DNA from: an uncultured Dehalococcoidales bacterium
Lineage (GTDB): Bacteria; Chloroflexota; Dehalococcoidia; Dehalococcoidales; E44-bin46
Assembly (NCBI GenBank): GCA_964354655.1
Contig: CAYHAL010000001.1
Location: 32,032 to 91,205 of the forward strand
Reading direction: 5' to 3'
DNA: 59,174 nucleotides
Under the pieces are notes generated by a model. The model saw only the letters and a list, made by a program, of their open reading frames with translations. It was not told the origin of the DNA and did not search any database. Both the position numbers and the translations under genes were made by a program. Below, piece by piece: positions 3,868 through 23,824 of this stretch. How positions within the stretch are numbered: position 1 is the first letter of the stretch; the number at the start of each line of letters is the position of its first letter.

Positions 3868-3974
3868 TGAGCCAAGTGTCTCTTTTATATTTAAGGGGGT
3901 TAATATGAAGTAATAGCAAAAGTGCCGGCAGTCTTCATTTTAGGAGGTTACCGTGCGGAAAATAACCTACTTAC

Positions 3975-4003: not shown

Positions 4004-4012
4004 TGTAGCCAC

Positions 4013-8084: not shown

Positions 8085-8771
8085 ATGAGAAGAATACTGG
8101 AAATATTAGCCCTAATAACCATTATGGCGTTGCTTTTGGGTGGTGGAGCAGTAGTCTCAGTGGCAGCGACACCAGAGGTTATAGTTAGCCTTGATGCCCC
8201 GGATGAGGTAGCCCTAGATAGTGATTTTACGGCTAACGTCAATATCAGTGAGGCGGTGAACTTTGACGCCTGTAACTATGATGTCTCGTTCGATGCCTCA
8301 GTGCTACGTCTAGATGGTGTGACCTCGGGTCTCATAGGTTCAGCAGCAATCCCGGTTGATATTTATAACGAGATTAGCCCCGGGACATACCGGGTGGTTC
8401 AGAATGTCCCTGGCTTAGCTGGAGTAAGTGGCTCCGGGTATCTGGCGGTATTACACTTCCATGTCGTTGGCACTGGCAGTAGCGCTATAAGCTTATCTAA
8501 AGGCATGCTGTCCAATATCTTGGCTGAGAAGATACCGGCAACATGGGTAGGCGATTCGGTGATGGTGGTAGCCGCTGTTGAAGCTACTACCCCACCGGCA
8601 GCAGTCACTCCACCGACAGTAGCCAGCCCATCTTCTGTGGCTATTGCTCCTGGCGAGGAGGCAGCATTGCCAGCTAAGGCAATCAATTGGCCAGTATTGT
8701 GGGCAGTAATAGGGGTAGTGATTGCGGTTGGGGTAATTGTTTTCCTACGGGTTAGAAGAAGGGCATACTAA
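8085..8771 (+). CDS. Membrane-anchored cohesin-like protein (candidate anchoring scaffoldin)
   Basis: GGGAGGG SD. The protein has an N-terminal signal/TM (ALITIMALLLGGGAVVSVAA), one cohesin-like domain paralogous to that of the protease, a Pro/Ala/Thr linker, and the C-terminal anchor AKAINWPVLWAVIGVVIAVGVIVFLRVRRRAY. Confidence 0.75.
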   Translation: MRRILEILALITIMALLLGGGAVVSVAATPEVIVSLDAPDEVALDSDFTANVNISEAVNFDACNYDVSFDASVLRLDGVTSGLIGSAAIPVDIYNEISPGTYRVVQNVPGLAGVSGSGYLAVLHFHVVGTGSSAISLSKGMLSNILAEKIPATWVGDSVMVVAAVEATTPPAAVTPPTVASPSSVAIAPGEEAALPAKAINWPVLWAVIGVVIAVGVIVFLRVRRRAY

Positions 8772-8855: not shown

Positions 8856-9962
8856 ATGTTTTGGAAGGATCAGTGCGGCTTTGCCGCTGAAGAGTCTTTA
8901 GACTCTCGATTGAAGGCTATCTGTGACTGGGTGGGGAAAGAGACTGGTGCCTCCTATGCCATTTTACTCCTTTATGACCGAGAGGGTTCACAATTACACC
9001 AGACTGCCTGGTATGGGCAGGAACAAGCCTGGGAAGGTGAGGCGGCTGTTACGCAGTGGGTTCTGTCTAGAGCCAAGCCATTATTTCTACAAGGGCAAGC
9101 CGATGCTAAGGAAATCGTAGGCTATAGCTTGGGGAGGGGTGTACTGCCGCTTATCTGTGTCCCAATAATGCGCAATGCCAGTCCGAAGGGCGTTCTCTGT
9201 GCTGGCGCACCCCATTCTGCGAGGAAGGCGTTCTCATGCTGGCTGCCCTTTCTTGGATCGCTGGGGGAGCTAGCTGGTGTACTCATAGAGAATCAAAGCC
9301 TTCTGCGGAGTCTGGGCAACCGGGAAGAGCAAGTGCGGAACCTCATCAGGGATACCCTTGAGGCTCAGGAAGCGGAGCGGGAGCGCATCTGTCTCGAAGT
9401 TCATGATGGGGTGACTCAGACTCTAACTTCAGCCTTCCATTATCTCCAGACCTTGGAGGCGGTATCAACTGAAGGCACCCCGGGTAGACAATTACTCCTC
9501 AGGGCAAGCGCTTTGTTAAGGCGAGCCATACAGGAATCGAGGGAGGTCATCAATAGTCTCCAGCCGGCAACCCTGAGGGACCTCGGCCTTGTTGCCACAC
9601 TGCACCAGGAGATGCAAGAACTGGAGCAAGAGCTGGGATGGGAAATAGACTTTAAGGCTGACGCCATCAGGCTTCCTAAAGACACAGAGACCGGGTTATA
9701 TCGAATTATCCATGAGGCTATCACCAATGCCAGAAAACATGCTAACACCAAGCGCCTCCGCATCAGGCTAACCTCTATAAATGGCCGGGTAAATGTCGAA
9801 GTTAAGGATTGGGGTATCGGGTTTAACTACGACCCCTGGGATATGGCGGGGAGGCAAGGTACCGGTCTACTGAGCATACGTAAGCGGGCGGAGCTTTTGC
9901 AAGGTACTTGTGACATCCAAAGTGCCCCCGGTCAGGGTACCATGGTGCGAGTGCAGATATAG
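8856..9962 (+). CDS. Cytoplasmic sensor histidine kinase: GAF-like N-terminus, HisKA_3 and HATPase_c (NarL-partner class)
   Basis: The H-box is ERERICLEVHDGVTQTL. ATPase motifs are ITNARKHA, DWGIGF and GTGLLSIRKRAELL. No hydrophobic TM segment is visible. Confidence 0.85.
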   Translation: MFWKDQCGFAAEESLDSRLKAICDWVGKETGASYAILLLYDREGSQLHQTAWYGQEQAWEGEAAVTQWVLSRAKPLFLQGQADAKEIVGYSLGRGVLPLICVPIMRNASPKGVLCAGAPHSARKAFSCWLPFLGSLGELAGVLIENQSLLRSLGNREEQVRNLIRDTLEAQEAERERICLEVHDGVTQTLTSAFHYLQTLEAVSTEGTPGRQLLLRASALLRRAIQESREVINSLQPATLRDLGLVATLHQEMQELEQELGWEIDFKADAIRLPKDTETGLYRIIHEAITNARKHANTKRLRIRLTSINGRVNVEVKDWGIGFNYDPWDMAGRQGTGLLSIRKRAELLQGTCDIQSAPGQGTMVRVQI

Positions 9963-9990
9963 GGAAATCTTTACCTATAAGAAGGTAAGC

Positions 9991-10656
9991 ATGAATAAGA
10001 CGAAGGTACTTTTAGTAGATGACCACCCGGTGGTGCGTGAAGGCCTTCGCACTATGCTGGGTACTGTTCCAGACATCGAGGTGGTAGCTGAAGCCGGTGA
10101 CGGATTTGAGGCTATAGAGAAGGTAAAAGAGCACCGGCCTGACGTGGTTCTAATGGACCTCCGTATGCCTAACCTGGATGGTCTAGAAGCTACCCGGCGC
10201 ATAAAAAGCCAGCTCCCGTCTACAGCGGTCATCGTGCTCACCGTATACGACAATGACGCCTATGTTGTGGATGCAGTTAGAGCTGGTGCCGGTGGCTATG
10301 TGCTCAAGGATGCCTCAAAAGACCTCCTCGTCCATACTATCCGGGCAGTCAGTAGCGGGGCAACCCTAATCAGGACTAACCTTCTGCATAGGGCAATATC
10401 CTCCCTGGTTGACTCTAAAAGTGCCTATCAAAAATCGGGGATGTCCACTACTCCAGGTCTAGCGTTGCTAACACCTCGTGAACAGGAGGTGCTCAAATTG
10501 GTGGCTGAGGGGCGGACTAACAAGGATATAGGCAAAGAACTGAGTATCACCGAAGATACAGTGAAGAAGCATATGCAGAACATTATCGCTAAGTTGAATG
10601 CCTCCAGTCGAACTGACGCTGCACTGAAGGCAACACGTGCCGGTGTTATTAAGTAA
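9991..10656 (+). CDS. Response regulator, NarL/LuxR family (REC + HTH)
   Basis: MNKTKVLLVDDHPVVREGL...DVVLMDLRMPNLDG is followed by the LuxR HTH LTPREQEVLKLVAEGRTNKDIGKELSITEDTVKKHMQNI. ATG 9991 was chosen over the ORF-track 9910 start, which overlaps the kinase. Confidence 0.9.
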   Translation: MNKTKVLLVDDHPVVREGLRTMLGTVPDIEVVAEAGDGFEAIEKVKEHRPDVVLMDLRMPNLDGLEATRRIKSQLPSTAVIVLTVYDNDAYVVDAVRAGAGGYVLKDASKDLLVHTIRAVSSGATLIRTNLLHRAISSLVDSKSAYQKSGMSTTPGLALLTPREQEVLKLVAEGRTNKDIGKELSITEDTVKKHMQNIIAKLNASSRTDAALKATRAGVIK

Positions 10657-10992: not shown

Positions 10993-11199
10993 GTGGCAGT
11001 AGAAAAGTCAATGGCATCCTCGAGCCTAGCTGAGGTTATTGACAGAATCCTGGACAAGGGCATTGTGATAGATGCCTGGGTTCGCATTAGCCTAGTGGGC
11101 ATTGAGATTTTGGCTGTCGAGGCCAGAATAGTGACTGCTGGTGTGGACACTTTCCTCAAATATGCCGAAGCTGTTGGGCTGACCGCAGCCGCTAGGTAG
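10993..11199 (+). CDS. gvpA: Major gas vesicle structural protein GvpA
   Basis: [54 protein letters not shown] is the canonical GvpA core. AGGAGGTG lies 7-8 nt before GTG 10993; an alternative ATG is at 11011. Confidence 0.92.
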
Positions 11200-11397
11200 A
11201 TTTGTGGTAAGGCCATTTGGTAAGCCGAGGGTCGAGGCGTGTTAGTGGTGACCGCCAGGTTGGTTCCCACTTACCAGTTTGAGCTTGCTTGAAGGGGGAA
11301 AGGGGGTAAGTAACCATGGTCTACACCTCGCTTGCCTCGACCTTGGCTTTAGCCAAAGGGAAGGTAGACCTACTTATTATAAAAAGGGGAATGAAAA

Positions 11398-11919
11398 ATG
11401 GGTTTAAGGCAGGAATTCCATGGGGCTAGTAGAAAGCGGCGAACCGAGATAGATGCCATCCGCTCTGGTGTAGCCAGTATACGCACTGAAGTAGCTGGTA
11501 TGCTTAGGGAGTTAGCTAGGGAAGATGCCAAGCGCAGGTCTGAGATAGATGCCATCCGCTCTGGAGTAGCTACTATGCGTTCCGAGGTGGCCGATATGCT
11601 CGAAGAGCTGGCAAAGCCGTATGCTGAGCGCAGGTCGAAGGTAACCGATTATATGCGCTCCGAGGTGAGTGCTATTTTTGAGGAGATTTTGGGCAAGGCA
11701 CCGGCTGAGAAAAAGGGAGCACCAGTGGTTAGGGAGAAACCAGTTAGTGAACTTCGTGATAGGGTCTTTGCCTACCTAGCTAACCACCCCAATGGGACTA
11801 AATTAACCGAGCTGGAAGAGAAGTTTGGCGTAGCCCGCATTCAGATGGCAAGGGTAGTCCGTGAGTTGATGGATAGTAACAAGGTAGAAAAACGCGAGCA
11901 ATTTTACTTTGCTATCTAG
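11398..11919 (+). CDS. Gas-vesicle-cluster protein with 32-aa tandem repeats and a C-terminal winged-helix-like domain
   Basis: Repeats are RRTEIDAIRSGVASIRTEVAGMLRELAREDAK, RRSEIDAIRSGVATMRSEVADMLEELAKPYAE and a shortened third unit. The C-terminus LRDRVFAYLANHPNGTKLTELEEKFGVARIQMARVVRELMDSNKVEK looks wHTH-like. Confidence 0.7.
   Translation: MGLRQEFHGASRKRRTEIDAIRSGVASIRTEVAGMLRELAREDAKRRSEIDAIRSGVATMRSEVADMLEELAKPYAERRSKVTDYMRSEVSAIFEEILGKAPAEKKGAPVVREKPVSELRDRVFAYLANHPNGTKLTELEEKFGVARIQMARVVRELMDSNKVEKREQFYFAI
11437..11628 (+). repeat. Two 96-nt tandem coding repeats, with a degenerate third unit to about 11691
   Basis: gagatagatgccatccgctctgg occurs at about 11446 and 11542. The period is 96 nt (32 codons). 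Confidence 0.85.
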
Positions 11920-11986
11920 GAGCTTGGACATGGCAGCCGGTATAAATTGCCGCTGTGTAGATTAGCTAAGAGGAGGGAGTAGAAGT

Positions 11987-12913
11987 ATGGTTATGACTAG
12001 GGGCGAGGAAATGTTAACGGTGCTGGAACCCCGTCCGTTATCCAAGTTTGTGGAGACGCAATTCATCAAGGAAATTACTGACCGCGCCATGGCCTATACT
12101 ATGGCTGGGTTCCCGGTTCATTTCAGGGGGGCATCAGGGACAGGGAAGACAACACTGGCTCTGCATGTTGCCAGCAAGATTGGCCGACCAGTAGTAATGA
12201 TACATGGGGATGAAGAATTCAGCACATCAGATTTAGTGGGAGGTGAATACGGCTACCGTTTGAGGAGGGTAGTGGATAACTTTATCCATTCCGTATTGAA
12301 GACTGAAGAGGACATGACAAGGAGGTGGGTGGATAACCGCCTGACAGCCGCCTGCAAGTACGGGTTGACCCTTATCTACGACGAGTTTACCCGTTCTCGC
12401 CCGGAGGCAAATAATGTCCTGCTTTCAGTTCTCCAGGAGAAGATGCTTGACGTGCCTGCCCATCAGGGTGACGGTGACGGCTACCTGAGGGTAGACCCTA
12501 ACTTTACCGCCATCTTCACCAGCAACCCAGAGGAGTATGCCGGTGTCTACCGGAGCCAGGATGCCCTTCGTGACCGAATGGTAACCATAGACCTGGGCCA
12601 CTTTGATGAAGAGACGGAGATAGCCATAACTGGGGCTAAATCAGGGATGCGCCGGGCAGAAGCCGCCAAGATTGTAAGTATTATCCGAGCTTTGCGCGAC
12701 TCTGGCGTGTGTGAGTATGCCCCCACTGTTCGGGGGGCGATAATGATAGCCAAGACCCTTAAAGTACTACATGGCTCAGTCAGTAGCAGAAATAATGCCT
12801 TTAGGAAGTTGTGTCTTGATATCCTGGCATCAGAGACAAGTCGAGTCGGCAGCAATGCTCAAAGCGCCAGGGTAAGAGAGAAATTGAGTGAGATAATTGA
12901 CCAATATTGCTGA
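11987..12913 (+). CDS. gvpN: Gas vesicle AAA+ ATPase GvpN
   Basis: Walker A is FRGASGTGKTTLA and Walker B is TLIYDEFTRS, consistent with the CbbQ/NirQ/NorQ/GvpN family. It sits directly after gvpA as in known gvp clusters. Confidence 0.9.
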   Translation: MVMTRGEEMLTVLEPRPLSKFVETQFIKEITDRAMAYTMAGFPVHFRGASGTGKTTLALHVASKIGRPVVMIHGDEEFSTSDLVGGEYGYRLRRVVDNFIHSVLKTEEDMTRRWVDNRLTAACKYGLTLIYDEFTRSRPEANNVLLSVLQEKMLDVPAHQGDGDGYLRVDPNFTAIFTSNPEEYAGVYRSQDALRDRMVTIDLGHFDEETEIAITGAKSGMRRAEAAKIVSIIRALRDSGVCEYAPTVRGAIMIAKTLKVLHGSVSSRNNAFRKLCLDILASETSRVGSNAQSARVREKLSEIIDQYC

Positions 12914-12959
12914 GCTAGAGATGACATCCCTTAGTATGTCCTGAAAGGAGTGCAAGCCT

Positions 12960-13418
12960 ATGAAAAAGAATGTTACTCTCGCTGATTTAGAAAGGGAGAA
13001 CAAGGAACTCCGTAGACAGTTAGCTGAGCTTGACGAGCTGCCCAACACGAGGAGACTTACCAGGAAGAGCATTAGCGACCTTAAGGGGGTGCAGAATATA
13101 GCTACTAGCCTCAGCGCGGGAGTAAGCTCCATCCCTGGCAGTCGGGAAGACCATCACTACCTTGATTTATATTTCCTGCAAATAGAGCAGGAGAGGCTGG
13201 TCAAAGAAATAGCCTCAATAAAAAGGCGAAGGCTACGGTTAGGAAGGAAGGTTTCCCACCTTGACAGGGAGATAGCTGCCAAAGAGAAAAAAGCCCTTCA
13301 AGCCATGACAATTCTGTCGGCAGGGTCTCTTAAAAAAATCAAGGCAAAAAAACAGGAAACGCCAAAGAGGGACGAAAATAAAGAGAAAGAATGGAATAAA
13401 TTTACCCTGGAGTACTAA
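12960..13418 (+). CDS. Coiled-coil protein of unknown function inside the gvp cluster
   Basis: Heptad-rich charged sequence (LADLERENKELRRQLAELDEL...; IEQERLVKEIASIKRRRLRLGRKVSHLDREIAAKEKK) with a Lys-rich tail. I recognised no family. Confidence 0.6.
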   Translation: MKKNVTLADLERENKELRRQLAELDELPNTRRLTRKSISDLKGVQNIATSLSAGVSSIPGSREDHHYLDLYFLQIEQERLVKEIASIKRRRLRLGRKVSHLDREIAAKEKKALQAMTILSAGSLKKIKAKKQETPKRDENKEKEWNKFTLEY

Positions 13419-13448
13419 GCATCTTACTAAAATGAGGAGACTTGTAGA

Positions 13449-13667
13449 ATGGTAGCCATATCGCCTGATGAAGGGCTAATCTGGAGACAGCAGAAACTGC
13501 CGTCTGAAGAGAGACCGAGGCAGATAAGGATAAATTCTGCCGTGATAGGTGCTATCGCTCGACATTTGATAGCCTGGGAATGGGCAAGAGCCCTGAGGAA
13601 AATCGCCGAGCCGTGGGAATGGCAACAAGAGCTTGAACGGAGGGTTTTTCTGGGGATAAGACGATGA
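13449..13667 (+). CDS. Small Trp/Arg-rich hypothetical protein (72 aa)
   Basis: The ORF overlaps the next gene start by 4 nt (ATGA), which suggests coupling. No recognisable motifs. Confidence 0.4.
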   Translation: MVAISPDEGLIWRQQKLPSEERPRQIRINSAVIGAIARHLIAWEWARALRKIAEPWEWQQELERRVFLGIRR

Positions 13668-14722
13668 GGAAATATATATACGGCGTTATCAAAATAAGCC
13701 AGCCAGTGACTTTTGGTCAGTCCCTTCTGTCCTCAAGCCCTGAGGAGGTATACACCATATCCCATCGTGACCTTGCCTTCGTTATCAGTAACTATGATGG
13801 GAGTGATTTTGTTTTGCTGCCCAAGGAGGATAAACTGCGTTGCTTGATGACCCACCAAGGGATTATTGAGCGAGTGATGAAGGAAGGGTATACCATACTT
13901 CCGGTAAAGTTTGGCACCCTTGTCGAGGGTGAGGATGAAATACGCCGCATTTTAAAGCAAGAGTATACAAGGCTTGTCCAAAACTTAAACCAGATGGCTG
14001 GTCTGGTGGAGATAGAGGTAGCAGCTACCTGGGACTTGAACCAGGTTCTTGAGGAGATTGGCAGCGAGGAGGAGATTAGACAACTGGGGCGCTCCATGGT
14101 GGGTAAGTCTGCCTCAGAAATAATGGAAATCCAGATAAACGCTGGTAAAGTGGTTAAGAAATCTCTAGATAGACGGAGGGAGAACTACCGCTGTCAGACA
14201 ATGCAGTCCCTTGCCGAAGCAGCGCTGGATATACAACCAAACGTATTAGTTGCTGATGAGATGGTTATGAATATCGCCCTCCTTATTTCAAGGGAGAGGC
14301 AGAGGGAGTTTGATAGCCGGGTGAGGCAAGTAAATGAGGCCTTTAATGACCAGATTAATTTCCGTATTATCGGTCCTCTACCGCCTTACAGTTTCAGTAC
14401 GGTGGAGATAAAGCGTCCCGACCCGGTGAAGATTGAACAAGCGAGGCAATTGTTTGGGCTCGGCACTGAAGTTTCACATAAGGAGCTCAAGGAGGCTTAC
14501 CGTCGCCTGGTAGCTAAGAGCCACCCCGATGTGCACCTGGATGGTAGCGATGAGCAGTTCACCAAGGTGCGGGAAGCATTTGCTTTACTGCGTGATTATT
14601 GTCACGGGCAGAGTGTGGGTGTTGAGCAAAATACAAATGGGCGATGCTATTCGCTTAAGCCCAAGGATGTAAGCCAGGTTTTTCTGGTTGAGATAAAACG
14701 CCCAGCCCTTCCAACTGGCTAA
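13664..14722 (+). CDS. GvpF/L-family gas vesicle protein fused to a C-terminal J-domain (DnaJ-type, HPD motif)
   Basis: The N-terminus YIYGVIK...HRDLAFVISNY...ILPVKFGTL...GPLPPYSF matches the GvpF/L pattern. Residues ~257-312 (ARQLFGLGTEVSHKELKEAYRRLVAKSHPDVHLDGSDEQFTKVREAFALLRD) match the J-domain pattern, with HPD at nt 14522-14530. Confidence 0.85.
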   Translation: MRKYIYGVIKISQPVTFGQSLLSSSPEEVYTISHRDLAFVISNYDGSDFVLLPKEDKLRCLMTHQGIIERVMKEGYTILPVKFGTLVEGEDEIRRILKQEYTRLVQNLNQMAGLVEIEVAATWDLNQVLEEIGSEEEIRQLGRSMVGKSASEIMEIQINAGKVVKKSLDRRRENYRCQTMQSLAEAALDIQPNVLVADEMVMNIALLISRERQREFDSRVRQVNEAFNDQINFRIIGPLPPYSFSTVEIKRPDPVKIEQARQLFGLGTEVSHKELKEAYRRLVAKSHPDVHLDGSDEQFTKVREAFALLRDYCHGQSVGVEQNTNGRCYSLKPKDVSQVFLVEIKRPALPTG

Positions 14723-15532
14723 ATGCTTGGGGTTAGTATGGCGGGAGAAGAGACTAGGGAAGCAAAGTACCTGTACTGCATAATAAAGTGCAGCCAGGAG
14801 GGCAACTTTAACGGTGTACCGGCTGTTGGTGGTCACTGCAGCCAGATTCACACCGTTGTCTTCAAGGATTTAGCCTGCGTGGTTAGCGGCTCGCCGAACA
14901 CGGAGTATGATAGTACCCGGGTAAACATGATGGCTCACGAGACGGTGATCGAGCGGGTAATGAGGGAATTCACCGTTCTACCCATAAGATTCGGCACCGT
15001 TACCACAAAAGGCTCGGGGTCGCCGGTTGAGGATATCCGCCATAAGCTCCTTGAGCGTCATTATGATGAATTTCTAAGCCTGCATGAGGACATGAGTGGG
15101 GGGGTTGAGCTAGGGCTTAAGGTATTATGGCGTGATGAGAAGGCAATCTATCAAGAGGTAGTTGCTGAAAACAGGGAATTGCGTAGGTTGAGAGATTCTA
15201 TTCAGGGTCGTTCTGCTGAGGCGACACACTTTGACCGGGTGCGATTGGGAGAAATGGTTAAAAAGGCGCTTGACCAAAAACGGGATAAGGAGGCGAGGAT
15301 GCTCCTGACTCGCTTTCACCCTATAGCCGACCGAATACGAGAGAACAGAATTATTATCGACCGAATGGTTCTGAACGCTGCCCTGCTGGTAAATAAAGAC
15401 CGGGAGAGGGAGTGTGATGAAATAGTGGAGAGACTGGATGAAGAGCTGGGAGAGAGGATGGTGTTCAAGTACACCGGGCCTAACCCTCCATTTAACTTTT
15501 GTCAGATTACGGTCAAATGGGAGAAGGAATGA
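14723..15532 (+). CDS. GvpF/L-family gas vesicle protein
   Basis: AKYLYCIIK...FKDLACVVSG...VLPIRFGTV...GPNPPFNF. An alternative start is ATG 14738. Confidence 0.85.
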   Translation: MLGVSMAGEETREAKYLYCIIKCSQEGNFNGVPAVGGHCSQIHTVVFKDLACVVSGSPNTEYDSTRVNMMAHETVIERVMREFTVLPIRFGTVTTKGSGSPVEDIRHKLLERHYDEFLSLHEDMSGGVELGLKVLWRDEKAIYQEVVAENRELRRLRDSIQGRSAEATHFDRVRLGEMVKKALDQKRDKEARMLLTRFHPIADRIRENRIIIDRMVLNAALLVNKDRERECDEIVERLDEELGERMVFKYTGPNPPFNFCQITVKWEKE

Positions 15533-15813
15533 AAGAAGGTAGGAAAATTCAGCAAGAAGAGGGAGGCGATCTTCTTACTAATATACTGGCCTTTCCTATT
15601 CTTGGCGCCCCAATAATGGTTCACTGGGTCGCCCAAAAGCTCGTCGAGGCAGCGGAGCAAGAGGAGCTGGACGAAGGTAAGCTCCAAGGTAAGTTACTGG
15701 AGCTTCAGATGCAATATGAGCTGGGAGAAATTGATGACGAAGAGTATGCGAGACAGGAAACAGCTATACTGGAAAGGCTCAACGCTATTCGTAAAACTAA
15801 GGAAGAGGAATAG
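15529..15813 (+). CDS. gvpG: Gas vesicle protein GvpG
   Basis: LLTNILAFPILGAPIMVHWVAQKLVEAAEQEELDE...LQMQYELGEIDDEEYARQETAILERLNAIR is typical GvpG. ATG 15529 overlaps the upstream stop (ATGA). The ORF-track start at 15499 is also possible. Confidence 0.8.
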   Translation: MKEGRKIQQEEGGDLLTNILAFPILGAPIMVHWVAQKLVEAAEQEELDEGKLQGKLLELQMQYELGEIDDEEYARQETAILERLNAIRKTKEEE

Positions 15814-15827
15814 TAAAAGGACGTAAT

Positions 15828-16136
15828 ATGGTGCCGACAGGGGATAAAATTACTACCAAAGGGGGGGCAAAGATGACTACCGGAATAACAAGTCTGGCTG
15901 AGCGAGCCAAGCAGCAATTGGCTAAGGTCACTGGCTTTAGCCCAGTAGCGGCAGTGGGGGGATTTAAAGACGAGGAGGGCTGGCATATCTCGGTGGATAT
16001 GCTAGAAATGGCCAGATTGCCCGAAGCAACCGATATCATTGGCACTTATGAGGTTTTGCTCGACCAGGGTGGCAACATGGTGAAATTTGAGAAAAAGAGG
16101 GCACGTCTCCGCGGTGAGCCGTATGAGGAAGGATAG
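15828..16136 (+). CDS. gvpO: Gas vesicle protein GvpO-like
   Basis: AKQQLAKVTGFSPVAAVGGFKDEEGWHISVDMLEMARLPEATDIIGTYEVLLDQGGNMVKFEKKRARLRGEPY matches the GvpO pattern (domain, then E.GW...V...E..R.P...D....YEV.LD..G). An alternative ATG is at 15873. Confidence 0.72.
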   Translation: MVPTGDKITTKGGAKMTTGITSLAERAKQQLAKVTGFSPVAAVGGFKDEEGWHISVDMLEMARLPEATDIIGTYEVLLDQGGNMVKFEKKRARLRGEPYEEG

Positions 16137-16202
16137 CTAAGTGCTACCATATTAGCTTCGTCACCATAGGAGTAGAAGCGCAACTAAAGCAAAAGAGGAT
16201 TG

Positions 16203-16562
16203 ATGAATATGGCATTACAAGCGCAAAAGGACACCGCTGGTACCTTATTTGATGTGATTGACAGGATACTGGACAAGGGGCTGGTTATTAATGCCGATAT
16301 CATGGTCTCGGTTTCCGGCGTTGAGCTACTAGGCATAAAAATAAGAGCTGCCCTGGCATCATTTGAAACCGCCGCCAGATACGGGCTGGAATTCCCTTCA
16401 GGAACTAATTTCCAAACCCCGGCCTGGCAGGAGGCAGTAGCCACTAAGGAAGAATGCCCTCAATGTGGTAAAAGGGTGCCAGCTAAGGAACTCTTGTCGG
16501 CAGGATGCCCCTGGTGTGGCTGGATAAGCGTTAAGGCAAAAGTAGCTCTGCCGCCAGCCTAA
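16203..16562 (+). CDS. GvpJ/GvpA-family protein with a C-terminal CxxC...CxxC zinc ribbon
   Basis: [48 protein letters not shown] is the GvpA/J core. The tail is CPQCGKRVPAKELLSAGCPWCGW. Confidence 0.8.
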   Translation: MNMALQAQKDTAGTLFDVIDRILDKGLVINADIMVSVSGVELLGIKIRAALASFETAARYGLEFPSGTNFQTPAWQEAVATKEECPQCGKRVPAKELLSAGCPWCGWISVKAKVALPPA

Positions 16563-16589
16563 AGGAAAGGCAAATGGCTAGCCGAAGTT

Positions 16590-16970
16590 GTGGGGATAAA
16601 GAAGTACGCAAGAGGAAAAGAAGCTATGGCAATTGTTGATATTGATGAAAAGAACCTGAAGCACGGTGTGCTGGGGCTGGTTATAGCCTTGGTGGAAATA
16701 ATCAAAGATACCCTCAAGCTTCAGGCAATGAAGCGTATGGAGGGAGGTAGCCTGACCGGGGAAGAGATAGAGCGGTTGGGAGAAGCGCTTATGGACCTAG
16801 ATATAGCCATTGACGAGATAAAGCAAGAGCAGGGGATTACCGAGTCGGTAAAATCGGTGAGGGATGGGCTGGATAATCTGGTAGATGGTGTCATTGACCA
16901 GTTCCTAAACCCTGAGAGGTGGCGGCAGGTAGCCGAATCAAAGGAGGAATCTAGCTGTGCAGCAAGATGA
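16590..16970 (+). CDS. gvpK: Gas vesicle protein GvpK
   Basis: LKHGVLGLVIALVEIIKDTLKLQAMKRMEGGSLTGEEIERLGEALMDLDIAIDEIK is the GvpK signature. GTG 16590 is taken from the ORF track; an alternative ATG is at 16626. Confidence 0.8.
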   Translation: MGIKKYARGKEAMAIVDIDEKNLKHGVLGLVIALVEIIKDTLKLQAMKRMEGGSLTGEEIERLGEALMDLDIAIDEIKQEQGITESVKSVRDGLDNLVDGVIDQFLNPERWRQVAESKEESSCAAR

Positions 16971-17760
16971 CAAGACTGAAGCCCGGAGAGAAGGGCAGGG
17001 GAGGTATCTTTACTGCATTGCCGGTAGTGGTGAGAGGGTAAGCCTGGGAGCTATCGGGATTGATGGTCATAATGTCTATACCGTTCCCTACCGGGATATA
17101 TGCGCCGTAGTACATAAGTGTCCTGCTGAGCCGTATCAGTCAACCGATAGAGAGTTGGTAAACTGTTGGCTACTGGCACACCAGAAGGTAGTGGACGAAG
17201 CTTGGCAAAGGTGGGGCACAGTGCTTCCTGTGGGATTTGATACCATAGTCATGGACAAAGATGGGGTTGGGGCGGAGGATAATGTCAGAGACTGGCTTCA
17301 AAAGGACTACGATAGCCTCAAGGACAAAATAGAGAAACTGAGGGGCAAGGCAGAGTATGGTGTGCAAATCTTTTGGTCACCCCAGGTTATTGCCCAGAAT
17401 CTAACCAAGACAAGCCCTGAAATCAGGCAGCTTGGGGAGGCAATAAAATCCCAGCCAAGGGGCATTGCCTACCTCAATAAGCAGAAGTTAGAGGGTGCAC
17501 TAAAGAAGGAATTAAAATCCAAAGCCGACCAGTGCTTTAGGGATTTCTATGAGCGTATTCGGAGACACGTTGACAATATCGTTGTGGGAAAAACGAAGCT
17601 GGGTGTTCAGGATGCTCAGATGATAATGAATCTCTCCTGCTTACTCCCCAAAGATAAGGCTGCCGAACTGGGGGAGGAACTGGGGAAGATTAATGCCATC
17701 GATGGGTTCTCGGTTCGCTTTACCGGACCCTGGCCGCCATATAGTTTTGTTGGCACCTGA
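16957..17760 (+). CDS. GvpF/L-family gas vesicle protein (third paralog)
   Basis: GRYLYCIAGS...YRDICAVVHK...VLPVGFDTI...GPWPPYSF. The GTG start overlaps gvpK by 14 nt. Confidence 0.85.
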   Translation: MQQDDKTEARREGQGRYLYCIAGSGERVSLGAIGIDGHNVYTVPYRDICAVVHKCPAEPYQSTDRELVNCWLLAHQKVVDEAWQRWGTVLPVGFDTIVMDKDGVGAEDNVRDWLQKDYDSLKDKIEKLRGKAEYGVQIFWSPQVIAQNLTKTSPEIRQLGEAIKSQPRGIAYLNKQKLEGALKKELKSKADQCFRDFYERIRRHVDNIVVGKTKLGVQDAQMIMNLSCLLPKDKAAELGEELGKINAIDGFSVRFTGPWPPYSFVGT

Positions 17761-17776
17761 TAGTAGAAGGTTATAA

Positions 17777-18073
17777 ATGGAACCAACCCGGGATACACAT
17801 TATACATTGGTAGACTTATTGGACAGGGTGCTTGATAAAGGTGTGGTGCTCTATGCCGATATTATCGTCTCAGTTGCTGGCATACCTCTAGTCGGTGTCA
17901 ACCTGCGGGCAGCGCTGGCTGGCATGGAGACCATGCTAAGCTACGGAGTAATGCAAGAGTGGGACCAGAAAATTCGTGCCGTGAAAGGGCTCGAGAAAGC
18001 GGGACTAGTTGCCTATACCAGTGCTACTAACCTGAGCGGGGAGAGGACATATGCCAAAGGCAGTTGGCATTGA
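17777..18073 (+). CDS. Small GvpA/J/M/S-family gas vesicle protein
   Basis: TLVDLLDRVLDKGVVLYADIIVSVAGIPLVGVNLRAALAGMETMLSYG. The 3' end overlaps the Hsp70 start by 23 nt. Confidence 0.8.
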   Translation: MEPTRDTHYTLVDLLDRVLDKGVVLYADIIVSVAGIPLVGVNLRAALAGMETMLSYGVMQEWDQKIRAVKGLEKAGLVAYTSATNLSGERTYAKGSWH

Positions 18074-19883
18074 CCTAGGGACTACTTTCTCACTGGTAGC
18101 CTACCTTGAGTGTGGCCGACCAGTGGTAATTCCCAATAGAGAGGGCAGCTGGCTAACACCCTCGGTGGTGGCATTTCTCAAAAACGGGAAGCGGCTGGTG
18201 GGGCAACTTGCCCGGCAGCAGGCTGTTGCCAACCCGGAGGGTACTATCTTCTCTATAAAGAGACATATGGGGCATCAGACTTACCTTGACCTTGGTGGTT
18301 TACCCAATGATAAGCAGCTTATCCAGCAGATTAAGCGGCACATGGGCTCTGATTACCGGATAAGGATTGACCACAATGAATATACCCCTGAGGAAATCTC
18401 GGCTATGATTCTTAAAAAGCTTAAGACGGATGCCGAAGAATATCTTGATGACAAGATAGAGCAGGCAGTTATCAGTGTGCCTGCCTATTTCAATGTCAGC
18501 CAACGGCAAGCCACTATAGATGCGGCTACGATTGCTGGCATCAAGGTCATGAGAATAATTGACGAGCCAACAGCCGCCGCCCTCGCCTATGGTTTGGAAA
18601 TGGAGGACGTCCACACCATCCTGGTCTGGGACTTAGGCGGCGGCACCTTTGATGTCTCTATCCTTGAGCTTGGCGATGGAATATTTGAGGTCAAGGCGGT
18701 CAACGGCAATACCTGGTTGGGTGGGGACGATTATGACCAGCGTATCGTAGATTATCTGACTGAAGAGTTTCAAGAGCAATATGGGATTGACCTCCGGAAA
18801 GATAGGGCAGTTTGTCGCCGACTGAAGGAAGTGGCTGAAAAAGCTAAGATTGAACTGACGGATAGCGAGGCTACTCTTATAGAGGTACCCTTTATCAATG
18901 CTGGCGAAGGTAGCCCCAAGCACTGGGAGATAACCCTGACCAGGGCAAAATTTGAAGAGCTAACCGAGGATTTGCGGCAGAAGATGATTGCCCCCACTAC
19001 GAAGGCGCTGGCTGATGCCGGACTCAGACCAGAAGATATAGACCGCCTTATCTTGGTCGGCGGCGCCACAAGGATGCCGGCGGTTAGAAAGCTGAGTGTG
19101 AAAATCGTAGGCAAAGAGCCCTATAAGGATATCCAGCCTGACGAAGCAGTGGCTTTGGGAGCAGCCATCCAGGCTGGCATTTTAATGGGGCAAATACAAA
19201 AGAAGGTGCTAATAGATGTTACCCCACTGTCTCTGGGTATTGAGACCCAGGGCGGTATATTTACCAAGATTATTGAGCGGAATACCCCTATCCCAACCTC
19301 CAAGAGTCAGATTTTTACCAACACCTCGGATAATCAGGCCTCCATGGATATTCATGTATTGCAGGGTGAACGGGATATGGCTGTAGATAACATTACCCTA
19401 GATAGGTTTGATTTAACTGGTATATCCTCAGCGCCCCGTGGGGAAGCCAGGGTTGAGGTGACCTTTGATATTGATGCTAATGGCATTCTTCATGTGTCGG
19501 CTAGCGACCTTTATGGCGATAGCTGCCAGGAGGTGAGGGTTAGCCCTCGTTTCTATGGGCTGCCTCAAGAGGAGATAGCCCGCATGGTTGAAGACGCAGC
19601 TAGATTCTCCGAGGATGACCGTAAACGGCGGCAGGAAGTGGAAATTGGCATCAAAGCCGATAATGTGGTGCGGGCTGCCCGGCAGGGTATTACTGAAGCT
19701 GATGTAACTGCGAATCTGAAGTTGATGCAAGAGGTGGAGAAGGCAATATTAGAGGTGCAGCAGGCTGTAGCCGACGGAGACAGTGCTGAGATCAAGTCAA
19801 GAACCGAAGCCCTGGAAAAGGAGATTAAGGCATTATACCAGCAAAGAGAGCCAAAACTAGAGGCAGAGCATGTAACCTCTTAG
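18051..19883 (+). CDS. Hsp70/DnaK-family chaperone encoded in the gvp cluster
   Basis: [39 protein letters not shown] and a substrate-binding domain ([13 protein letters not shown]...VLQGER...[13 protein letters not shown]). GGGGAGAGGA SD. No grpE or full-length dnaJ lies next to it. Confidence 0.9.
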
Positions 19884-19998: not shown

Positions 19999-20433
19999 AT
20001 GGGGGTAATTGGGACAAGGGTATCACCAGTTCTGGAGCAATATATCCAAGACTACTGCAGTGGTTTAGGGAAAACCACTTCTCAGTGGCTCAGGGAACTT
20101 ATCGAAAAGGAAATCTCGGGTAAGACGCCAAACCCAGCGCTTGGGGATGCCATCAATGGGCTTAGCAATTTGGCTTCTGACAATGCCAAATTTATGATTG
20201 GCATACTGGCGGTGTCCTTGGGCATATATAACACCCTTATCCGGGGCGAGATTTCAAGTCACCCTGAGAGGGCAAAGCAACTAGAACAGGCACACAGTGA
20301 ATTCGTAGGCAGGCTGCTCAAAAACCTACCGCTAAAGGAGCAGCTTACCGTCGAAATGGGAATAAGAATATCGGATTTGGCAACCGAAATAGAAAGGATT
20401 AAGTCGGAAAAGCAAATACAGCAGGAGGTGTAA
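19999..20433 (+). CDS. Putative ribbon-helix-helix (CopG/Arc-like) regulator with a hydrophobic segment and coiled-coil tail
   Basis: GTRVSPVLEQYIQDYCSGLGKTTSQWLRELIEKEI fits a beta-alpha-alpha RHH pattern. The hydrophobic stretch is FMIGILAVSLGIYNTLI. It is the first gene behind the palindrome-bearing promoter. Confidence 0.6.
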   Translation: MGVIGTRVSPVLEQYIQDYCSGLGKTTSQWLRELIEKEISGKTPNPALGDAINGLSNLASDNAKFMIGILAVSLGIYNTLIRGEISSHPERAKQLEQAHSEFVGRLLKNLPLKEQLTVEMGIRISDLATEIERIKSEKQIQQEV

Positions 20434-20434: not shown

Positions 20435-20971
20435 ATGGCTGAAGGGAAGAAAAAGGCAAAGGTAGAGTTTGATTTTGGGCTGGGGGGACTGTTTGAGGGG
20501 ATGGGTAAGCTCTTCGACCTAGTCTCCAAGATGACCGAGGAGGGAAAGGAAGAGTATACCCGTACCGGGGAAATTAAAGGTCTAGGTGATAAGGCTAAGG
20601 GAATCTACGGCTTTAGCATCAAGATGGGCTTAGGCGGTCAGCCAACGGTAGAGCATTTCGGTAACATCAAGAAGACAGCGAGGGGCTCAGTGGAGGTAGC
20701 CGAGGTCAGAGAGCCCATAGTTGATGTCTTCGACGAGGGAGGCTATCTATTAATTATTGCCGAAGTCCCTGGCGTCGAGGAGGAAAACATCGACCTTGAA
20801 ATAAGGGGGGATATTCTCAGCCTGAAGGCTGAGGGTAAAGATAGGAAGTACAGTAAAGAGGTTCTCCTGCCATCAGAGGTTGAGGCTGAAAGTATGAAGA
20901 CCCAGTATAAAAGCGGAGTCTTGGAGATAAAACTTGCCAAGAAGATATCACCGTCGGGTAAAGGCAGTTAG
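20435..20971 (+). CDS. Hsp20/alpha-crystallin family small heat-shock protein
   Basis: [77 protein letters not shown] is an ACD domain. GGAGGTG SD. Confidence 0.85.
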
Positions 20972-20975
20972 AAAT

Positions 20976-23123
20976 ATGCCAGAAATGAAGACAAAAGACG
21001 CCTTGATACTTAAGGTAGCCGAAGCATTAGCCAAAGACGTTGGTCGGGGGATAGCCAGGCTTGACCCCAAAGACATGGCAAGACTGGGGGTTGAGGTGGG
21101 GGATATCATTCAGGTCATGGGTAAGAGACCTACCCCAGCCAAGGTTATGCCGGCGTTTATGGAGGACAGAGGCAAGGATATTATCCAGATAGATGGCATT
21201 ACTCGGGAGAATGCTCAGATAGGTCTTGATGAAAAGGGGCAAGTTCAGAAAGCTGAGTACAAGACGGCTAGCGTAGTGGTTCTTGCCCCCTTAACTACAC
21301 GAGGGACATTAAAGGAAAGGGATACTGGTTATATCGGGAAGCTGCTCGAGGGACTAGCCGTTAGTGCCGGGGACAAGGTAAGGGCTACCCTCTTTGGCAC
21401 TCGTTACCAGGAATTCTCTGTGGTTGATACTAGCCCCAAGGGAATAACTGTCATCCATTCTACCACTACCATAAAGATAGCCGGAGAAGGGGCACGGGTA
21501 AAGGAAGGGGTTGGAATTACCTATGAGGATATTGGTGGGCTGCATCGGGAGACCCAGAAAATAAGGGAGATGATTGAACTACCGTTGAAGTACCCTGAGG
21601 TATTTGAGAGATTGGGGATAGATGCCCCCAAAGGGGTATTACTTCATGGACCACCAGGCTGTGGCAAGACCTTGATAGCCAGGGCGGTAGCCAATGAGAC
21701 CTCAGCCCATTTTATACATATAAGTGGCCCCGAGGTTATCCATAAGTTCTACGGGGAGAGTGAAGCTCACCTGCGAGCCCTTTTTGAGGATGCCAGAACA
21801 AATGCCCCATCGATTGTATTTGTGGATGAGATAGATGCTATCGCTTCTAAACGGGAGGAGATCCGGGGTGACCAGCAGGTAGAGCGAAGGGTGGTAGCTC
21901 AACTTCTGGCTTTGATGGATGGCTTGAAATCGAGGGGGGAGGTAGTGGTCATCGGAGCGACCAACATACCTAATGTGCTCGACCCAGCCTTGAGACGGCC
22001 GGGGCGCTTTGATAGAGAGATAGCCATTAGTATTCCTGATAAGAACGCAAGGCTGGAGATACTTCATATTCATATCAGGGGAATGCCTCTGGCTGCTGAT
22101 GTAGACCTGGAAAGGATTGCTGGAATTACTCACGGGTTTGTTGGGGCAGACCTGGAGGCTCTAGCCAGAGAAGCCGCCATGATAACCCTGAGGAAGATAA
22201 TGCCTAAGATTGAATTCGAAGCTGATAATATCCCCTATGAGTTGCTTCTGGAGCTGGAAGTAACTATGGATGACTTCCTGAATGCATTAAAGGAGGTAGA
22301 GCCCTCAGCCATCAGGGAGGTCTTCATTGAGATTCCTGATGTTCGTTGGGATGATGTCGGGGGACTAGACGAGGTAAAACGGGTGCTCAAGGAAAGCATT
22401 GAATGGCCGCTAAAATACCCGGAGCTTTTTGACCACATGAGAACCAATCCCCCCAAAGGCATCCTACTTTATGGTCCTCCTGGTAGCGGGAAGACATTCC
22501 TAGCTAAGGCAGTAGCCAGTGAGAGCGAGATCAATTTCATTTCGGTCAAGGGTCCAGAGCTACTGTCTAAGTGGGTTGGAGAATCAGAGAGGGGCATAAG
22601 GGAGGTATTTAGAAAAGCTAAACAGGCTAGCCCTTGCATTGTCTTTTTTGATGAAATAGATGCTATAGCCCCAATTCGGGGGGCGAGTAGCGATTCTCAT
22701 GTTACTGAACGGGTAATCAGCCAATTTCTGACCGAGTTGGATGGAATGGAAGAGCTCAAAGGTGTGATTGTGCTGGCAGCTACTAACCGGCTGGATATGG
22801 TAGACCCAGCCTTGCTTCGACCTGGCAGGTTTGACCTTCGGCTGGAATTGCCCACCCCCGATGCTAAAGCCCGCCTGGAAATATTCAATATACATACCAG
22901 AGGAAAACCACTAGCTGCTGACGTGGACCTCAAGGCTCTGGCTGATACCACTGATGGCTTGGTTGGGGCTGACATAGAGGCTATCTGCAGAAGGGCTTCC
23001 ATGCTGGCTATACGAGAGTTTCTGGGTAAGCATAGAACCTTCAAGTCGGAAACTAAAAAGGTAGACCTTTCCCAAGCTAAAGTCAGTAATAAGCACTTTG
23101 AGGAGGTAATCAGGGAGTTGTGA
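20976..23123 (+). CDS. Cdc48/VCP-like double-ring AAA+ ATPase (N domain + D1 + D2)
   Basis: The Cdc48-N-like region is [38 protein letters not shown]. Two Walker A motifs are present, GPPGCGKT and GPPGSGKT. Two Walker B motifs are present, IVFVDEID and [11 protein letters not shown] 20976 follows the hsp20 stop by 4 nt. Confidence 0.9.
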
Positions 23124-23824
23124 AAGAAATGAGAAGATTGATTTATATCCCTATCATTCATACTGATTCTGACATGGGCAGTCTGGCTTCGGCACTTGAG
23201 CTGGGCACGACTGCAGTCTGTGGGGAGAAACGCTGGGAAAGGCATAAGGCAACCGCCTCTAGATTCTGGCAGATGGTATTGGACTTTTTTGAAACATTGG
23301 ATGCCAATGGTCTTAAGGTATACCAGGATGGTTTTGTTTCAGATGGTGTCTCGAGCCGAAAGATGGTTCGAGAGGCGGCGAGGAGAGGGAGTAAGAACTA
23401 TGAAATCATCCTTGGTCTGCTTAGCCGGGGCGCTGAGATAGTATCTACAGAGGATAAGGCGCTGCTTCAGGAGGAATATGGATACATTAGCCGGATTATT
23501 GATTCTGAGACCCTCTCCCAGAGAGCGCTTGCCTACAAGGAATATAATTTGCGGAAGAATCAATTAATGATAGAAAGAGATAGCTTTATAGCTAGAAGGA
23601 TAAATGAGACCCTGGCGGATGGAGAGGCGGGGGCTCTATTTATGGGAGCCTACCATGATATTGTTCCTCACTTGGCTAGGGACATCGCGGTAAGGCAGCT
23701 CAAAGAGCGAGAGAAGGTAAAGGCCTACTTTGATGAGTTAATGTATGGTAGAGACGAAAGGAACTTCGAACAGCTGACAAGGTACATTAACTCAGCAGTT
23801 GGGGCGCTAGTGATTATAAACTAG
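23120..23824 (+). CDS. Conserved hypothetical protein, last gene of the hsp20-cdc48 operon
   Basis: The GTG start overlaps the cdc48 stop (GTGA); an alternative ATG is at 23129. The motif LFMGAYH is faintly reminiscent of the TraB/GumN/ChaN-like GxxH motif. No firm family assignment. Confidence 0.6.

Follow-up and report, generated by a model that had tools for sequence, protein, structure and literature searches.

Proteins of the GvpA family are small, hydrophobic and aggregation-prone, and how GvpA is kept soluble and inserted into the growing gas-vesicle shell is unresolved, the accessory Gvp proteins being only suspected chaperones. Could a gas-vesicle (gvp) gene cluster bring along chaperones of its own? 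The question is raised by a stretch of 59,174 nucleotides from an uncultured Dehalococcoidales bacterium (NCBI GenBank assembly GCA_964354655.1, contig CAYHAL010000001.1, positions 32,032 to 91,205), which we refer to throughout as the window. Here a gvp cluster runs directly into the gene of a DnaK-like Hsp70, and one of its GvpF proteins carries a J-domain (GvpF-J below). J-domain proteins direct Hsp70s to their targets, and the HPD motif of these partners sets off ATP hydrolysis and the capture of the client. The analysis leads us to a reading to which we give a probability of roughly 70%: the gvp operon would encode its own protein-handling machinery, made up of Hsp70, GvpF-J, a small heat-shock protein of the Hsp20 family and a CDC48-type AAA+ ATPase, and this machinery would serve both assembly and quality control.

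Linkage of hsp70 to gvp genes

A protein search with the window Hsp70 found homologues at identities between 57% and 96%, labelled, where named, as Dehalococcoidia, Ca. Scalindua rubra, Thermodesulfobacteriota, Ca. Hakubella (Actinomycetota), Ca. Oleimmundimicrobium and "Deltaproteobacteria". The nearest relatives in GTDB are metagenome-assembled genomes (MAGs) labelled Dehalococcoidales or Dehalococcoidia, in which the Hsp70 is 84% and GvpF-J 73–75% identical to the proteins of the window. When the neighbourhoods of the closest homologues are read (57–84% identity; loci L001–L009 and L092–L094), all 12 contain a gvp cluster. A gene of the Gas_vesicle family lies immediately 5' of the Hsp70 gene in 10 of the 12, the usual order being GvpK-GvpL/F-Gas_vesicle protein-Hsp70, and in some loci this gene and hsp70 overlap. 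In L005, three genes, one of them encoding an ArsA homologue, come between the Gas_vesicle-family gene and the Hsp70, and in L003 (Ca. Scalindua rubra) a distance of ∼3 kb separates the Hsp70 from a GvpL/GvpF gene downstream of it. Most of the 12 neighbourhoods also hold Hsp20, CDC48, a GvpF-J fusion and a homologue of a conserved protein, encoded by the open reading frame (ORF) that we call ORF234.

As a control panel we used 80 DnaK loci listed by a scan with universal DnaK motifs, an arbitrary sample of GTDB in which the proteins are 49–57% identical to the window Hsp70. The motifs came from an alignment of the Hsp70 and brought up housekeeping DnaKs only, which made the scan unsuitable for surveying the gvp type. 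None of the 80 loci has gvp genes, and grpE and/or a full dnaJ adjoins the gene in most of them. No such housekeeping context is seen in the window, and neither grpE nor a full dnaJ is present in any of the nine gvp-linked loci that were screened in the same way as the controls. A naive Fisher exact test of 12/12 against 0/80 gives p ∼3e-15, a value that overstates the independence of loci that are phylogenetically related. The adjacency of hsp70 and gvp genes is not a matter of chance.

A motif scan and a scan with a GvpF-J alignment added ∼30 further GTDB genomes with an Hsp70 inside a gvp cluster, their labels including Pirellulales, Verrucomicrobiota, Syntrophales, Desulfobacteraceae, Desulfatiglandales, Aerophobetes and "Eubacteriales" as well as many Chloroflexota. 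The order GvpK-GvpL/F-GvpS-Hsp70 is found in MAGs labelled Chloroflexota/Dehalococcoidia, Desulfobacterota, Actinomycetota, Planctomycetota, Verrucomicrobiota, Aerophobetes and "Eubacteriales". A gvp cluster with an Hsp70 of its own and a J-domain on GvpF is shared by relatives in no fewer than six bacterial lineages with names. The motif G[ND]TWLGG[DE]D was tried as a marker of the clade and rejected, since it also matches other Hsp70 types without gvp neighbours (Hymenobacter, Myxococcales and other labels). The divergent Hsp70-like proteins that match it (L095, L096, L104, L121 and others, from Hymenobacter, other Bacteroidota and Myxococcota) score 110–415 bits; the 8-kb pieces around them hold no gvp genes, and most are also without grpE or dnaJ.

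Phylogenetic placement of the Hsp70

The window protein belongs to the Hsp70 superfamily, matching PF00012 with 697.8 bits over profile positions 1–596 of 599. Among the NCBIfam models for DnaK it passes NF001413 (786 against a cut-off of 648), by which it would be named DnaK, and misses TIGR02350 (779 against 822.55), NF009947 and NF009946. It also falls below the models for HscA (TIGR01991, 587 against 708.55; NF003520, 582 against 620), and no isc genes adjoin it. No NCBIfam family specific for gas-vesicle Hsp70s is among its matches. The phmmer bit score was rejected as a discriminator between gvp-type and housekeeping proteins, as housekeeping DnaKs reach 595–665 bits against the window protein and overlap one of the gvp-linked clades (clade B, below). 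The two types were classed by tree and genomic context.

In a neighbour-joining tree of 197 sequences, the 116 nearest homologues are monophyletic with a bootstrap of 100/100, set against 80 non-gvp DnaKs and E. coli DnaK. A larger tree of 305 sequences resolves a clade A of 144 sequences, the window protein included, of which only a part has a verified genomic context, and a clade B of 21 sequences from Chloroflexota and Desulfobacterota. The two together have a bootstrap of 94/100. No sequence inside this group has a grpE or dnaJ-like neighbour, and the group excludes the 73 DnaKs scored as housekeeping by an adjoining grpE or dnaJ-like gene. The Chloroflexota housekeeping DnaKs (L042, L025, L057, L060, L064) all lie outside it, including the DnaK of a Dehalococcoidales grpE-dnaK-dnaJ locus (L042), which is of the long type and 52% identical to the window Hsp70. 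Clades A and B each mix phyla and the housekeeping DnaKs of the same phyla are found elsewhere in the tree, which is the pattern of a paralogue moving with the gvp cluster. Two Anaerolineae MAGs, JAKLPW01 (L223, 6239–8233) and CAZEXX01 (L232, 731–2551), carry a long-type Hsp70 between gvpN and GvpF-J, directly ahead of the latter; these two proteins are nearest to Chloroflexota housekeeping DnaKs and stand apart from the main gvp clade.

Residue and length features of the Hsp70

The catalytic and allosteric residues of Hsp70s, which we take to be D8, K70, E171, D194, T199, D201, P143, R151 and D393 in E. coli DnaK numbering, are identical in the window protein, as is R71. Across clade A they are conserved (D8 in 141 of 144 sequences, the other three being gapped there, and D393 in 131 of 144), and none of the 21 clade B sequences departs from them. 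R167 and T173, through which Hsp70 contacts the J-domain, are retained as well, and N170 has become D in 102 of the 144 clade A proteins.

The substrate-binding part presents a different picture. Arch residue 404 is L or M in 76 of 81 comparison DnaKs; it is Q, E or R in 131 of 144 clade A proteins and Q or E in all 21 of clade B. The change S427T has the same distribution. At position 436 all 81 comparison DnaKs have V, whereas M is found in 95/144 clade A proteins and in 13/21 of those in clade B. The gvp-type proteins are also shorter, with a median length of 609 against 636 amino acids (∼27 residues less), and the acidic C-terminal tail of housekeeping DnaK is absent from those sampled, including the window protein. 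Both Anaerolineae proteins likewise lack the acidic tail and have K as residue 404 and T as residue 427, which looks like an independent recruitment with convergent changes. The gvp Hsp70 belongs to a distinct, gvp-restricted lineage of DnaK-like proteins in which the core is intact and the substrate-binding cleft remodelled.

Two further features concern R56 and a segment of 24 residues. R56, which Brehmer et al. 2001 reportedly placed in one of two salt bridges that slow nucleotide release from DnaK, is replaced in 94 of 144 clade A proteins and is Q in the window Hsp70. Loss of these salt bridges in HscC has been tied to GrpE independence (PMC8215388), and the replacement of R56 would be compatible with a lower need for GrpE. 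A 24-residue segment is found in most of clade A, the window protein included, and is absent from clade B and from the actinobacterial members. It has the place and the length of residues ∼75–98 of long-type DnaKs with a sequence of its own, and on account of this shared position and length it may be a diverged ancestral segment; a partial duplication (IKRHMG...IKRHMG) was also considered as its possible source.

A J-domain on GvpF

The J-domain of GvpF-J matches PF00226 with 35.5 bits against a cut-off of 27.8, spans residues 264–311, and has its HPD motif at residues 287–289 in the context KSHPDV. When the protein is aligned with four distant fusions, Y279, R280, H287, P288, D289, F299 and L309 are invariant, which is the helix II-HPD-helix III signature. 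The J-domain lies C-terminal to the GvpL_GvpF domain, an architecture of the class C type; the J-domain portion alone matches TIGR02349 (∼31 bits against a cut-off of 377), so that the protein is not a class A or B DnaJ. A hidden Markov model (HMM) built from 63 DnaJ J-domains finds a single J-domain in the 59-kb window, the one fused to GvpF (E 3.8e-10). Searches of the window by phmmer with E. coli DnaJ and GrpE, and with HMMs from the 63 J-domains and from 51 GrpEs, gave no GrpE, full DnaJ, other J-domain or second Hsp70.

The fusion occurs more widely than the Hsp70. All 80 best GTDB matches to the fusion alignment have the J-domain on GvpF, with HPD in 74 of them, and HPD is present in 9 of 10 fusions found alongside gvp-linked Hsp70s. 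The lineages are very broad and mostly uncultured, the labels including Nitrospirota, Nitrospinae, NC10, Latescibacteria, Omnitrophota, Zixibacteria, Ignavibacteriales, Saganbacteria and Edwardsbacteria. Among 23 GvpF-J loci with full 10-kb flanks, 12 have an Hsp70 inside; in another of the 23 (L243, on the same contig as L131) the Hsp70 lies just past the flank. A solitary GvpF-J gene occurs in the Dehalococcoidia MAG JAUWIC01 (L213, 10001–11065). It is 75% identical to that of the window, stands without a second gvp gene in the 10 kb to its left and right, and is flanked by genes of the other strand.

Extent of the cluster and the Hsp20-CDC48 pair

The original prediction, made from the letters of this DNA, had listed the gvp genes, with three GvpF/L paralogues among them, as a run on one strand that ends with the Hsp70. 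ORF calls and Pfam bear out the list, the coordinates and the shared strand. The same holds for the overlap of 23 nt between the last small gvp ORF and a full-length Hsp70: by ORF coordinates (18051–18073) the hsp70 ATG lies within the 3' end of the GvpS/J-like gene, and alignment shows that this start codon agrees with the starts of the homologues. The statement that there is no grpE or canonical dnaJ, and that the sole J-domain is on GvpF, was confirmed for the window by the phmmer and HMM searches above. What has to be corrected is the end of the cluster, which had been put at 19883; the tight run on the same strand reaches 23824 and takes in ORF144, an Hsp20, a CDC48-type AAA+ ATPase and ORF234.

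The ATPase has a CDC48 N domain followed by two AAA modules and lies above the TIGR01243 cut-off, which makes it a CDC48/VAT-type protein, and CDC48 is found in most related gvp clusters. We found no paper that mentions CDC48 in gas-vesicle clusters. The pair of an archaeal-type Hsp20 followed by CDC48/VAT recurs in many phyla (L001, L006, L092, L094, L229–L231, L243 and others), often directly before GvpF-J. An Hsp20-like protein of ∼300 amino acids often lies directly 3' of the Hsp70 in related clusters, though not in the window.

Proposed role and alternatives

What might these proteins do together? In haloarchaea, GvpM, a member of the GvpA family, is a binding partner of GvpF and GvpL, and GvpH stops it from aggregating (PMC6107691). 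Heterologous gas-vesicle expression in E. coli leads to proteotoxic stress, and assembly factors are thought to act as GvpA chaperones (PMC12848028). From the gene content, the cross-phylum synteny, the separate clade and the residue patterns, we infer the following binding partners and effect on vesicle formation. As suggested by the published interactions of GvpF and GvpL with GvpM, the GvpF/L part of GvpF-J would bind GvpA-family proteins (GvpA, GvpJ, GvpS) or the growing vesicle. The HPD motif of its J-domain would, by the universal Hsp70/J-domain mechanism, trigger ATP hydrolysis in the cluster Hsp70, which would clamp the client. The Hsp70 would in this way keep shell subunits soluble and pass them on for ordered insertion, with Hsp20 acting as a putative holdase and CDC48 perhaps extracting or unfolding mis-assembled subunits.

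Both the survey of related loci and the phylogeny bear on what had been predicted. The adjacency could have been absent from relatives, and is instead conserved far past close kin in multiple phyla; the Hsp70 could have been an ordinary orthologous DnaK, and instead groups with the gvp-linked Hsp70s of other phyla. The proposal of a client-dedicated Hsp70 for gas-vesicle assembly or recycling has thereby gained gene linkage, a distinct clade, a remodelled cleft and a conserved HPD motif, while the role itself is what we infer from them.

The same set of GvpF-J, Hsp70, Hsp20 and CDC48 could instead serve mainly to take apart vesicles that have collapsed or are in surplus, with recycling or degradation of their GvpA, which we consider unlikely. 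Such dismantling would resemble the uncoating of clathrin by auxilin/Hsc70 or the cooperation of Hsp70 with an AAA+ disaggregase. The shells of gas vesicles are extremely stable, and a collapsed vesicle does not re-inflate, so that on general grounds an ATP-driven extractor would be useful to the cell. A CDC48/VAT-type unfoldase and small heat-shock proteins (sHSPs) do recur in these clusters, and a J-domain fused to a lattice-binding protein follows the logic of auxilin. However, the chaperone genes are embedded among the biogenesis genes and, by the 23-nt overlap with gvpS, appear translationally coupled to them, and the published contacts of GvpF/L indicate early assembly (PMC6107691). The two roles could go together, and the sequence does not tell which net direction prevails, that of assembly, of quality control or of recycling.

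Another reading, which we regard as highly improbable, takes the chaperone genes for a module of general stress response, co-regulated and travelling with the gvp cluster but with no gas-vesicle-specific clients, the vesicles being made under heat or other stress. Merino et al. did propose a heat-shock link for Hakubella, where hsp20 adjoins the gvp genes (PMC7325909), and the passing of the NCBI DnaK model NF001413 would suit a general chaperone. Against this, the J-domain is fused to GvpF and not to a general DnaJ body, the Hsp70 lineage occurs only beside gvp genes in the loci read, and its place after GvpK-GvpL-GvpS is fixed across phyla. Moreover, the substrate cleft has lost residues that hardly vary among housekeeping DnaKs, and convergent replacements are seen in the separately placed copy. 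That the Hsp70 is the sole, orthologous housekeeping DnaK of its genome and adjoins the gvp genes by chance is scarcely credible. A complete protein whose catalytic core is intact would suit this view, but in the tree its companions are the gvp-linked Hsp70s from other phyla and not the DnaK of the Dehalococcoidales locus L042, it misses the strict DnaK equivalog TIGR02350, none of the nine screened gvp-linked loci has grpE or dnaJ nearby, and, as an indirect hint, GrpE is present in Hakubella genomes (single amplified genomes; PMC7325909 supplement) but not in the Hakubella gvp loci read (L007, L101).

Several points weigh against a dedicated machinery for assembly and quality control. Of the 23 GvpF-J loci with full flanks, ∼10 look complete, ending in ...GvpK-GvpJ-ORF234, and have no Hsp70, meaning none within the 10-kb flanks. 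Clusters of this type can thus do without a dedicated Hsp70, and their J-domain could use housekeeping DnaK; presumably GvpF-J does use the DnaK of the cell in the Hsp70-free clusters. The dedicated Hsp70 would accordingly be an add-on in a subset of clusters, with GvpF as a J-domain co-chaperone being the more general design. The cluster encodes no nucleotide-exchange factor, and by their contig-name prefixes the control DnaK loci and the gvp loci have no genome in common in which a housekeeping dnaK would be seen beside the gvp-linked gene. On the phylogenetic side, the trees are neighbour-joining trees on Kimura distances and not maximum-likelihood trees, the set of nearest homologues was picked by similarity, which favours monophyly when set against an arbitrary panel, and clade A alone has a bootstrap of 77 and clade B alone one of 52. 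Promoter and terminator scans of the cluster did no better than on shuffled sequence. Finally, all carriers of the gvp-Hsp70 are uncultured MAGs or metagenome contigs, known from their genes alone.

Comparison with known systems

The closest parallel is HscA-HscB with IscU, encoded in isc operons, where a specialised Hsp70 and its J-partner lie in the operon they serve with no GrpE alongside, and where the substrate-binding domain is tuned to a narrow set of clients and the spread across phyla is patchy (PMC8215388). In contrast to that system, the window protein is DnaK-like, the J-domain is on the assembly factor GvpF and not on an HscB-type adaptor, and the presumed clients are shell proteins and not an Fe-S scaffold. 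With housekeeping DnaK, the gvp Hsp70 shares the nucleotide-binding domain, the linker, the β part of the substrate-binding domain and the helical lid, together with the catalytic and allosteric residues, R167 and T173; it differs in having no adjoining grpE or dnaJ, in its separate clade, in the polar residue 404, in its shorter length and in the lack of an acidic tail.

Two other systems offer partial parallels. Auxilin/GAK with Hsc70, and other class C J-proteins, likewise use a J-domain on a lattice-binding module to recruit Hsp70 to one assembly. The analogy is mechanistic only, as auxilin/GAK is eukaryotic, has unrelated client-binding domains and acts in disassembly. E. coli HscC with DjlB and DjlC is also an extra, non-essential Hsp70 with neighbouring dedicated J-proteins that is apparently independent of GrpE (PMC8215388). 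The window Hsp70, however, has no NCBIfam match of the HscC type and is much closer to DnaK, and HscC is described as having large changes in its substrate-binding domain and membrane-anchored J-partners (PMC8215388).

The core genes gvpA, N, F/L, G, J, K and O and the linked Hsp20 are those of known gvp clusters. We know of no Hsp70, J-domain or CDC48 in the model clusters of haloarchaea, Bacillus megaterium, cyanobacteria, Serratia and actinomycetes. That gvp clusters can contain Hsp20 and two-domain ArsA homologues is already known (PMC2963123), and ArsA homologues of the kind described there by Castillo & Saier also occur in relatives of the window (L001, L005, L007, L092). The paper on Hakubella lists gvp genes and hsp20, with no mention of a DnaK gene beside them (PMC7325909). 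Neither account mentions Hsp70/DnaK, a J-domain or CDC48. In the searchable full-text literature, outside of which most subscription journals lie and where absence is not proof, we found no description of gvp genes with Hsp70/DnaK, with DnaJ or a J-domain, or with CDC48. The system would amount to a client-dedicated Hsp70/J-protein pair in the manner of HscA/HscB, here joined to an organelle system that is already known.

DnaK, HscA and HscC are the only prokaryotic types of Hsp70 that a recent review distinguishes (PMC8215388). A bolder reading, which we offer tentatively and hold to be doubtful as a whole, would make the gvp-Hsp70 a fourth functional class beside these three, dedicated to an organelle and recruited by GvpF-J. 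Together with sHSPs and CDC48 it would both load and remove GvpA-family subunits, so that buoyancy could be reversibly remodelled. If this were true, the gas-vesicle content of the cell would be actively remodelled and not only diluted by growth.

Gene layout and accessory genes

The features of the cluster are collected in Table 1. GvpA is clustered with GvpN, F/L, G, J/S, K and O, each family scoring above its Pfam gathering score, and the gvp genes lie on one strand with gaps of ∼200 nt or less. The start of ORF234 overlaps the CDC48 stop by 4 nt. Their spacing and overlaps suggest an operon. By their position, the kinase and the response regulator upstream of gvpA are candidate regulators of the cluster. 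Some relatives (L005, L006, L094) have stand-alone receiver proteins after the Hsp70-Hsp20 pair, in place of the upstream kinase and regulator.

Table 1. Genes of the gvp cluster and its upstream regulators, with positions in the window
Feature	Position	Strand	Evidence or remark
GAF + HisKA_3 + HATPase_c sensor histidine kinase	8856..9962	+	Pfam
Response regulator, LuxR/GerE HTH	9910..10656	+	Pfam Response_reg 1e-31, GerE 3e-20; directly 5' of gvpA
gvpA, major shell protein	10993..11199	+	Pfam Gas_vesicle 1.5e-15
ORF173, 32-aa repeat protein between gvpA and gvpN	11398..11919	+	no family match; 96-nt direct repeats
gvpN, AAA+ ATPase	11987..12913	+	Pfam AAA_5 1.7e-17; 1e-167 to GvpN of L004
ORF152, conserved protein after gvpN	12960..13418	+	no family match
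ORF72, small ORF	13449..13667	+	no family match; weak homologues in L004, L114
GvpF/L + C-terminal J-domain (GvpF-J)	13664..14722	+	Pfam GvpL_GvpF 1e-52, DnaJ 1e-8
GvpF paralogue (second GvpF/L)	14723..15532	+	Pfam 3.4e-61
GvpG	15499..15813	+	Pfam 1.1e-17
GvpO	15828..16136	+	Pfam 8.9e-17
GvpJ-like, Gas_vesicle domain + C-terminal Cys4 zinc-ribbon-like tail	16200..16562	+	Pfam Gas_vesicle 3.4e-16
GvpK	16590..16970	+	Pfam 7.7e-18
GvpL/F paralogue (third GvpF/L)	16957..17760	+	Pfam 6.6e-69
GvpS/J-like small GvpA-family protein	17777..18073	+	Pfam Gas_vesicle 7.7e-17
gvp-associated Hsp70, DnaK-like, 610 aa	18051..19883	+	Pfam HSP70, E 1.3e-209
ORF144	19999..20433	+	no family match; homologues in L001, L008, L113, L169
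Hsp20, archaeal type, weakly GvpH-like	20435..20971	+	Pfam HSP20 7e-8, GvpH 0.006; NCBIfam "archaeal Hsp20" 160.5 > 140
CDC48/VAT-type double-ring AAA+ ATPase (N domain, D1, D2)	20934..23123	+	Pfam CDC48_N 1e-24, CDC48_2 7e-10, 2x AAA; TIGR01243 981 > 802.65
ORF234, conserved gvp-cluster protein	23120..23824	+	539 homologues, none with a Pfam domain

ORF234, a protein of ∼230 amino acids, goes with this kind of gvp cluster. Its homologues are all annotated as "hypothetical", and it adjoins CDC48 or GvpF-J or sits at the end of the cluster (L001, L005–L008, L092, L094, L230, L262, L275 and others). An AlphaFold2 model is of the α/β type with a mean predicted local distance difference test (pLDDT) of 88.9 and a predicted TM score (pTM) of 0.85, and has no match in the PDB by fold (best E 0.12, TM ∼0.2) or by sequence. 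The invariant residues, which are of His, Asp, Glu and Trp types among others and include H11, D15, H39, Y65-Q-D-G68, R150-D151 and H176, suggest an enzyme or a binding site. A role as nucleotide-exchange factor or adaptor was considered and rejected, there being no match by sequence or fold and the gene being present also in clusters without Hsp70.

The repeats of ORF173, found with a gapless repeat finder, have a sub-period of 7 amino acids within the 32, and are followed by a weakly winged-helix-like C-terminus; Tandem Repeats Finder reported no repeats, and no Pfam or NCBIfam family scores above its cut-off. Homologues, some of them larger, occupy the slot after gvpA in many related loci. 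In position and repeats the protein may recall GvpC of cyanobacterial clusters, with no match in sequence. ORF152 is kept 3' of gvpN in L004, L006, L217, L222, L228 and others, and our reading of its sequence by eye is of a probable coiled coil. Among the loci compared, homologues of ORF144 are restricted to close relatives labelled Dehalococcoidia. The GvpJ-like protein matches the NCBIfam GvpJ model with 1e-27, which is under its cut-off, and its translation contains CPQCG...CPWCG.

Related clusters hold two further kinds of gene that the window does not have, two-domain ArsA/Get3-like ATPases and small CXXCXGXG zinc-finger proteins without a J-domain (L001, 557–2512 and 6660–7052; L005, 838–2793 and 7502–9610; L007, 4133–6091; L092, 1953–3896; L003, 5020–5463). 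The GC content is uniform over the window, and the rest of it is the ordinary chromosome of an anaerobe, with a NiFe hydrogenase and hypF/D/E, SufBC, RecJ, FabF, RtcB and HcyBio. Upstream of the kinase, positions 3953–7996 encode a protein of 1347 amino acids with subtilase S8 and clostripain C11 peptidase domains, Big_5 and a type I dockerin. The next protein, encoded at 8085–8771, has a cohesin domain and a membrane anchor at its C-terminus, and the two form a cohesin-dockerin pair in the style of a cellulosome.

Implications

With the J-domain fused to GvpF, GvpF would hand something to Hsp70, and the question of whether accessory Gvps are chaperones thereby becomes directly testable. The Hsp70 itself would show that nature has produced a bacterial Hsp70 lineage dedicated to particular clients, coherent in its phylogeny and remodelled in its substrate arch, to which the Anaerolineae proteins would add a second, convergent lineage. 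Gas vesicles are used as acoustic and magnetic resonance imaging reporter genes. When put into E. coli, many gvp clusters either do not assemble or prove toxic, the cause being proteotoxic stress (PMC12848028), and GvpF-J, Hsp70, Hsp20 and CDC48 may be portable, gvp-specific chaperone modules that are worth trying in such engineering. In nature, the extended type of gvp cluster described here is widespread in uncultured, largely anaerobic lineages, among them Dehalococcoidia, Desulfobacterota, Nitrospirota and candidate phyla.

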